A stretch of DNA of 5,942 nt from a virus. Its lineage: Duplodnaviria > Heunggongvirae > Uroviricota > Caudoviricetes. Position numbers and translations under genes: made by a program. Shown in pieces: positions 2,211 through 2,519 of the stretch; the first letter of the stretch is position 1; each line of letters starts with the position of its first letter. The stretch is from the IMG/VR virus record IMGVR_UViG_2667527698_000005; one strand, written 5' to 3'. The notes beneath the pieces were generated by a model that made no database searches, was not told the DNA's origin, and saw only the letters and a list, made by a program, of their open reading frames with translations.

Positions 2211-2519
2211 NNNNNNNNNNNNNNNNNNNNNNNNNNNNNNNNNNNNNNNNNNNNNNNNNNNNNNNNNNNNNNNNNNNNNNNNNNNNNNNNNNNNNNNNNN
2301 NNNNNNNNNNNNNNNNNNNNNNNNNNNNNNNNNNNNNNNNNNNNNNNNNNNNNNNNNNNNNNNNNNNNNNNNNNNNNNNNNNNNNNNNNNNNNNNNNNNN
2401 NNNNNNNNNNNNNNNNNNNNNNNNNNNNNNNNNNNNNNNNNNNNNNNNNNNNNNNNNNNNNNNNNNNNNNNNNNNNNNNNNNNNNNNNNNNNNNNNNNNN
2501 NNNNNNNNNNNNNNNNNNN
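2211..2519. other. Run of 309 N (assembly gap or masked sequence) inside the Q-to-holin leader
   Basis: Positions 2211-2519 are all n. The ORF 2185..2598 in the track is an artefact of translating across it. Confidence 0.99.

Follow-up and report, generated by a model that had tools for sequence, protein, structure and literature searches.

The window analysed here is a 5,942-nt stretch of a tailed-phage record (Caudoviricetes, IMGVR_UViG_2667527698_000005), and every gene in it lies on the minus strand. These genes encode a DnaC-like loader (4972-5919) and a DnaB-type helicase (3584-4975), followed by the late-gene activator Q (2662-3042) and the first lysis gene, a holin (1702-1917), with lysozyme and spanin genes and two small genes, including ninH, also present. 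The 126-aa Q protein matched Pfam PF06530 (E=4e-54), is 85% identical to Q of the Stx2 phage 933W and 82% identical to QuuD of DLP12, and the same gene is annotated as an antiterminator Q family protein in a near-identical relative. The 71-aa holin is of the phage-21 type (PF04971 'P21 holin S', E=6e-35) and is annotated as a class II holin in relatives. The interval between Q and the holin gene S spans 744 nt, of which 435 nt are defined bases and 309 nt (2211-2519) form the only N run of the window. The initial annotation had placed an N run of this length, with about 435 visible bp around it, in the Q-to-S cargo hotspot of lambdoid phages; a direct count gave the same figures, and the Pfam matches identify the flanking genes as Q and S.

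Between the holin and endolysin genes, an unusual site for an additional gene, lies an ORF of 209 aa (1069-1698, minus strand). It had no match in Pfam or PADLOC and matched only PHROG families without an assigned function (phrog_1085, E=1e-73).

To find what the N run stands for, we relied on records that match both of its flanks exactly. About two dozen such records were found, some of them possibly the same genome held in two collections, and in all complete copies the flanks are separated by 367 nt, except for one in which they are separated by 366 nt. All nine complete E. coli genomes with both flanks at 100% (among 5,426 genomes) have 367 nt, as do two species representatives, E. coli ECMA0423 and Shigella flexneri SFBU1023; of nine viral contigs with both flanks, eight have 367 nt and one has 366 nt. 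Of the first 12 loci with identical flanks, 11 share one and the same 367-nt sequence, which is also carried by four further complete genomes located through the exact Q protein. The closest match is a viral contig (L009, 8477-14476) that is identical to all 5,633 visible bases of the window (2210/2210 in one arm and 3423/3423 in the other). In this contig the arms and the block (11900-12266) add up to 2210+367+3423 = 6000 bases, and the 5,942 nt of the window plus the 58 nt missing from it likewise make 6,000; we take this to mean that the window derives from a slice of 6,000 bases, 367 nt of which gave way to 309 N. It is thus very probable that the hidden sequence is the 367-nt block of the relatives, an identification that draws on those relatives, as the window itself shows N only.

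The block comprises, in the direction of transcription, a 57-nt spacer with a promoter-like element and the genes for tRNA-Ile(CAU), tRNA-Arg(UCU), tRNA-Thr(UGU) and tRNA-Gly(UCC), the latter lacking its last base. That base, the A of the encoded CCA, is the sole base of the tRNA array visible in the window (position 2210, minus strand), and corresponds to the annotated 3' end of the gene in a relative (L001, position 5511). Almost certainly, then, the N run hides four ordinary phage tRNA genes with a promoter of their own. The initial annotation had suggested that something small, tRNA genes for instance, could be concealed here, and the identical-flank relatives do carry four tRNA genes and a promoter; they do not show the simple leader, devoid of ORF, RNA gene or repeat, that had been named there as the contrary outcome. 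Its caution that the true length would be uncertain if the run were a gap was likewise justified, the relatives having 367 nt and not 309 nt.

The N run would accordingly be 58 nt shorter than the sequence it stands for, a shortfall that counts against the identification. Its flanks are contiguous with defined sequence elsewhere, and its length differs from the true one, both of which mark the run as non-biological. The total of exactly 6,000 bases and a run only 2 short of the 311-nt tRNA array suggest that the N were written in by a process that does not keep length. A deliberate mask and a repeat-induced assembly gap are equally plausible origins, and in both cases the length of the run would be uninformative. 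A scaffold gap is as plausible as a mask because the block is multi-copy and draft contigs break inside it: it was located 15,233 times across 5,425 E. coli genomes (per genome, a median of 2 and a maximum of 11), with at least 80% of it present in 601 complete E. coli genomes, and one draft contig with this Q stops 26 nt into tRNA-Thr, a gene near-identical to that of the host. Among 5,251 collection blocks with this Q protein, about 4,740 have no Q-carrying contig of 10 kb or more. No N run was found at this locus in the species-representative genomes or in contigs encoding the exact Q protein.

Two other readings of the run were weighed against a replaced 367-nt block. If the N were an in-place mask that kept its length, the source would truly have a 309-nt interval, that is, a cluster variant 58 nt shorter, for example one without the 57-nt promoter spacer, in which tRNA-Ile would adjoin the tR' side. 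The numbers lend themselves to such a deletion, as the 311-nt tRNA array exceeds 309 by 2 and the 57-nt spacer falls 1 short of the missing 58, and the viral contig with 366 nt, a 1-nt variant, shows that the interval does vary somewhat in length. Nevertheless, scans of 2.9 million viral contigs and of 241 million metagenome records gave no interval of 295-325 nt between exact flanks, nor did one appear among the complete E. coli genomes and species representatives that have both flanks, and the contig identical over every visible base has 367 nt, which yields the round slice of 6,000 bases; we therefore consider a true 309-nt interval very unlikely. One genome that might have passed for a shorter variant, E. 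coli EPSSH018 (H67), differs both in its Q gene and in the interval itself and is not comparable. Still more improbable, to the point of being nearly negligible, is a gap of larger size that hides a late-expressed accessory gene, such as a Shiga toxin or porin gene. This very site holds stx2AB in 933W, a porin gene in the DLP12 prophage of K-12 and an esterase gene in EPEC prophages, and the length of the N run has proven unreliable; yet all exact-flank sequences, including the one at 100% over 5,633 bases, hold just the 367-nt tRNA block, and the array starts right at the edge of the mask, with tRNA-Gly ending (3') at position 2210. Shiga toxin and porin genes are excluded by size, the flanks leaving room for just 367 nt, and these contain no plausible ORF, the longest being 49 aa and overlapping the tRNAs. 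Given the replaced 367-nt block, the gap holds neither a toxin nor an unfamiliar element, and the value of filling it is mostly that of a clean-up.

The four tRNA genes of the block all lie on the strand of the late operon, separated by gaps of 1-3 nt. In the relatives they are annotated by PGAP, and ARAGORN likewise found four cloverleaves, each with an encoded CCA; their scores against Rfam RF00005 in the identical-flank relatives are 70.5, 69.8, 64.9 and 56.4 bits (gathering score 29). All anticodon loops of the relatives' block are 7 nt long and have U33 and a sense anticodon (CU-CAU-AA, CU-UCU-AA, CU-UGU-AA and CU-UCC-AA), and more than 15 copies in the lineage of the window show the four tRNAs unchanged and in canonical form. 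That the tRNAs may be made, charged and used in translation has indirect support in the identity of Gly to a functional host tRNA, in the 2 of 76 positions at which Thr differs from another, and in this invariance. The tRNA with the CAU anticodon was called Met by ARAGORN and Ile by PGAP; an Ile assignment is expected for a lysidine-modified reader of AUA.

The genes differ in their apparent sources. Gly and Thr find a source-like match in the host thrU-tyrU-glyT-thrT-tufB operon, the former being identical to glyT (75/75) and the latter nearly so to thrU (74/76); in contrast to the host operon, the phage genes are adjacent without tyrU, are joined to phage-type Ile and Arg genes and lie in a late operon. 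The Ile gene matches 933W ileZ at 74 of 77 positions (96%) and the host AUA tRNA at 71 of 77, while the Arg gene is built on the phage-specific argN scaffold, with 61 of 77 positions (79%) shared with 933W argN and only 58 of 79 with host argU. Judged by these comparisons, the block is a mosaic of host-like and phage-type genes.

The signals around the array were assigned by folding and alignment. Downstream of Q, on the minus strand, a late promoter resembling pR' (2606-2633; -35 TTTACG, -10 TATTCT) aligns base for base with pR' of 933W (TTTACG...TATCAT), and its identity as pR' is inferred from this homology; a simple consensus scan did not call it. A segment at 2585-2592 (minus strand) that aligns with the 933W qut (Q-utilisation) site is identical to it in 5 of 8 bases, and might at most be a qut site. 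It is followed by a tR'-like intrinsic terminator (2549-2575, minus strand), in which a 9-bp hairpin predicted by RNA folding (AAACCCGCC-UCCG-GGCGGGUUU) precedes a U run; in the alignment, this hairpin coincides with the terminator that the 933W annotation lists first after pR'. A simple terminator scan, which made zero calls, missed even this clear hairpin. The four tRNA genes lie downstream of pR' and tR', and would therefore be reached by Q-modified polymerase.

Two side observations concern the segment from pR' to tR' (2549-2633, minus strand). A near-identical copy of it is present in K-12 DLP12 upstream of essD, beyond the inserted porin gene (L242, ~3190-3290), and the segment is homologous to a region of 933W from which a short late-promoter transcript has been reported. 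An sRNA of 74 nt from Stx phages is presumably StxS. This 74-nt RNA appears in a review table, where it is listed as repressing Stx1 and activating rpoS.

The 57-nt spacer upstream of tRNA-Ile appears to carry a second promoter. Its conserved element consists of TTGCNN, a 17-nt spacer and TAT(T/C)(A/T)T, is kept in 32 distinct, otherwise diverged upstream sequences, and occupies a fixed position in them, the -10 ending 9 nt before the 5' end of tRNA-Ile. The element also aligns with the hexamers of what is annotated in 933W as "pT, putative tRNA promoter". We infer from this conservation and homology that the spacer carries a sigma-70-type promoter homologous to pT of 933W; in a simple promoter scan it scored only 9/12, the scan finding 2 sites against 1.0 expected by chance.

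On the far side of the array and of the leader RNA described below, a degraded intrinsic terminator is seen in the window lineage (1983-2002, minus strand; GCG-UUU with a 3-bp stem). Most relatives have an intact terminator about 25 nt past the leader hairpins, either GCCCGC-UUUU-GCGGGC with a U run or GCCUCGC-UUCG-GCGAGG-U6, the latter being annotated as a terminator in HK639. In the window, where it is degraded, transcripts started at the tRNA promoter might continue into the holin region. The design of the relatives suggests that the tRNAs form a compact unit, bounded by a promoter and a terminator of its own and set within the late operon. With the block filled in, the complete late leader reads Q, pR', tR', pT, four tRNAs, a structured leader and the holin.

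A tRNA array is a known kind of cargo for this spot, and the block itself is already annotated as four tRNA genes in RefSeq genomes. Among characterised systems, the ileZ-argN-argO cluster of 933W (GenBank AF125520) has the same layout, with Q, pR', qut, a terminator, pT and late-strand tRNAs upstream of the lysis genes, and its identity to the block is 75-77%. The anticodon of the second tRNA is however UCU here and UCG in 933W argN, argO of 933W has no homologue here, its place being taken by the host-derived Thr(UGU) and Gly(UCC) genes, tR' and pT are separated by about 90 nt here compared to about 330 nt in 933W, and toxin genes follow the tRNAs in 933W while none follow here. As the gene content of the 933W cluster (ileZ, argN(UCG) and argO(UCU)) is not that of the block, the block is best described as a relative of this cluster and not as the same cluster.

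Closer counterparts are found in the temperate coliphages PhiR47_1, vB_EcoS-689R5 and vB_EcoM-606R7, which have Ile-'Lys'-Thr-Gly arrays that are 93-94% identical and show no change of order; these arrays are followed by the three-hairpin leader seen here (97-98%) and, further downstream, again by a holin of the phage-21 type. They differ from the window in having another Q type, extra ORFs between Q and the tRNAs and an intact leader terminator, and their second tRNA has a UUU anticodon with C33 and is annotated as Lys, where Arg(UCU) is found here. In the P22-like phages L and Sf6, tRNA genes likewise sit between the late promoter and the lysis genes, directly behind the promoter (PMC8022706). 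These are other tRNAs (Asn and Leu, and Asn and Thr, respectively) and have no known promoter, unlike the array here with its conserved promoter-like element. Whether such late-region tRNAs are cut from the late mRNA or made from a promoter of their own was left open in that study (PMC8022706), a question on which the comparative evidence for a dedicated tRNA promoter bears.

What the tRNAs might be for was approached through codon usage, by comparing the relative synonymous usage of 54 annotated prophage genes of a near-identical relative with that of 40 K-12 core genes. The codons read by the four tRNAs all end in A and are rare in E. coli. These cognate codons, AGA, AUA, ACA and GGA, rank 1, 4, 5 and 6 of 59 for enrichment in the prophage over this host control, which is small and is not the true host. 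By simple arithmetic from the ranks, the chance that four named codons all fall in the top six is about 3 in 100,000. Of the wobble partners, AGG ranks 2 and GGG 8 of 59, and CGG, for which there is no phage tRNA, ranks third. Taken together, the four codons account for 58 of every 1000 codons in early genes, against 36 for the late genes and 16 for the host sample. An excess of rare codons is a frequent trait of horizontally acquired DNA generally.

These ranks make the array a worked example of phage tRNAs that match the codon demand of the phage's own genes. We think it likely that the 367-nt block forms a small operon of codon-supplying tRNAs, lodged within the late operon of a lambdoid prophage from the E. 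coli/Shigella lineage. According to this model, the minus strand would carry, in order, Q, pR' with a qut-like site, tR', the hidden pT and tRNAs, the three-hairpin leader, the degraded terminator and the holin. The tRNAs would be made from pT, possibly already in the lysogen, and also from the Q-antiterminated late transcript; host tRNA-processing enzymes would cut them out, and they would top up the scarce host tRNAs for AUA, AGA, ACA and GGA, leading to efficient translation of phage genes. Late-region tRNA genes of phages L and Sf6 have similarly been proposed to supplement the tRNA pool (PMC8022706).

Codon supply, as a function in its own right, is a claim we favour with less assurance than the nested operon, and one point against it is that codon enrichment is stronger in the early genes while the tRNAs lie in the late operon. 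Moreover, tRNA-Gly, being identical to host glyT, would add dosage and leave decoding capacity unchanged. The tRNAs may instead serve mainly to replace host tRNAs cut by tRNA-cleaving defence or competition systems, or may persist as low-value hitch-hiking or recombination modules, an explanation that seems to us unlikely but that deserves to be taken seriously. The wide changes of the anticodon loop on one scaffold at the second tRNA position (slot 2), described below, fit an arms race or decay better than codon supply; one relative's slot-2 copy is eroded and no longer a tRNA; and Gly and Thr, as near-exact host copies, give homology for recombination. Against this stand the ranks of the four cognate codons (1, 4, 5 and 6 of 59) and the canonical, invariant state of the four tRNAs in more than 15 copies of this lineage. 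A role in defence is further weakened by tRNA-Gly, which, identical to that of the host, would be cleaved by any nuclease that cleaves the host's.

Directly 3' of tRNA-Gly and 5' of the holin lies a structured leader RNA of about 185 nt (2026-2203, minus strand), with three hairpins at 2158-2203, 2079-2149 and 2026-2078. The fold of the 293-nt visible leader has a z-score of -3.98, none of 200 shuffles folding equally well. Homologues of the element occur in 67 distinct versions among viral contigs (examples are L015 1827-2029 and L030 1998-2175, the latter in the late leader of HK639, at 75% identity), and they always follow tRNA-Gly or a remnant of it and precede an intrinsic terminator, the one that is degraded in the window lineage. 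Across 55 distinct homologues, 96.4% of cells are paired, compared to 37-45% when the partners are slid, and compensatory changes occur at 11 pairs; 135 cells are changed on both sides, a number reached by none of 500 shuffles and compared to 1-36 in the slid controls. The covariation signal comes mostly from the split between two main clades, with several combinations of changes present.

The element could not be equated with a described RNA among those compared. Rfam gave no match at the gathering threshold for the window, nor at E<=1 for a relative. IpeX was rejected as its identity, the region upstream of essD in K-12 (the nmpC-essD site of DLP12) being without a homologue of the leader. 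The Pas sRNAs were rejected as well: PasA, PasC and PasD1/2 of EPEC E2348/69 (coordinates from PMC8550237, Table S6) adjoin holin genes but are not homologous, nhmmer and blastn comparisons of the leader with them yielding no matches above chance.

Hairpin 1 (2158-2203) resembles the 3' half of tRNA-Gly (TCTGCGATGATGGGAAATCCCGG versus GCTGATGATGCGGGTTCGATTCCCGC), and in four viral loci it is absent, so that tRNA-Gly abuts hairpin 2; hairpin 1 may have arisen by a partial duplication of tRNA-Gly. In the late leader of HK639 (HM208537), the three-hairpin element is closely preceded by a tRNA-Asn(GUU) missing from the annotation and by a tRNA-Gly(UCC) of which a truncated 3' half is left (L030, 1837-1911 and 1949-1992).

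The tRNA cargo upstream of the leader element varies among 106 loci. At slot 2 (L001, 5667-5743), relatives share one conserved tRNA body with compensated acceptor-stem changes and a hypervariable anticodon loop (L015 1595-1671, L014 1631-1707, L027 754-833, L203, L137, L227 and L188). Their loops carry UCU, UCG, UUU with C33, AAA, UAA or UUA, a reader of stop codons, or are shortened to 5-6 nt, so that not all slot-2 variants of the relatives have a canonical 7-nt loop with U33 and a sense anticodon. This repeated rewriting of the anticodon loop on a conserved body suggests a tRNA that may be retargetable or act as a decoy.

Both the leader RNA and the hypervariable slot-2 loop may be new observations. 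That the leader is an undescribed functional structured RNA of lambdoid late operons, linked to a slot-2 tRNA that is retargetable or a decoy, is a tentative proposal, which we hold to be possible and yet rather doubtful. The leader could be a trailer, processing platform or insulator of the nested tRNA operon, or a regulatory RNA itself; if confirmed, the structured leader and the variable anticodon slot would be of modest interest to RNA and phage biologists.

Lastly, a near-identical prophage in E. coli CFSAN029787 shows additional genes. Beyond its tail-fibre genes it carries a frameshifted ipaH type III effector gene (L019, 6037-7679), and between its lysis genes and terminase it carries a RelE/ParD toxin-antitoxin pair (L019, 31529-32063). 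Both fit a host of the Shigella/enteroinvasive lineage.
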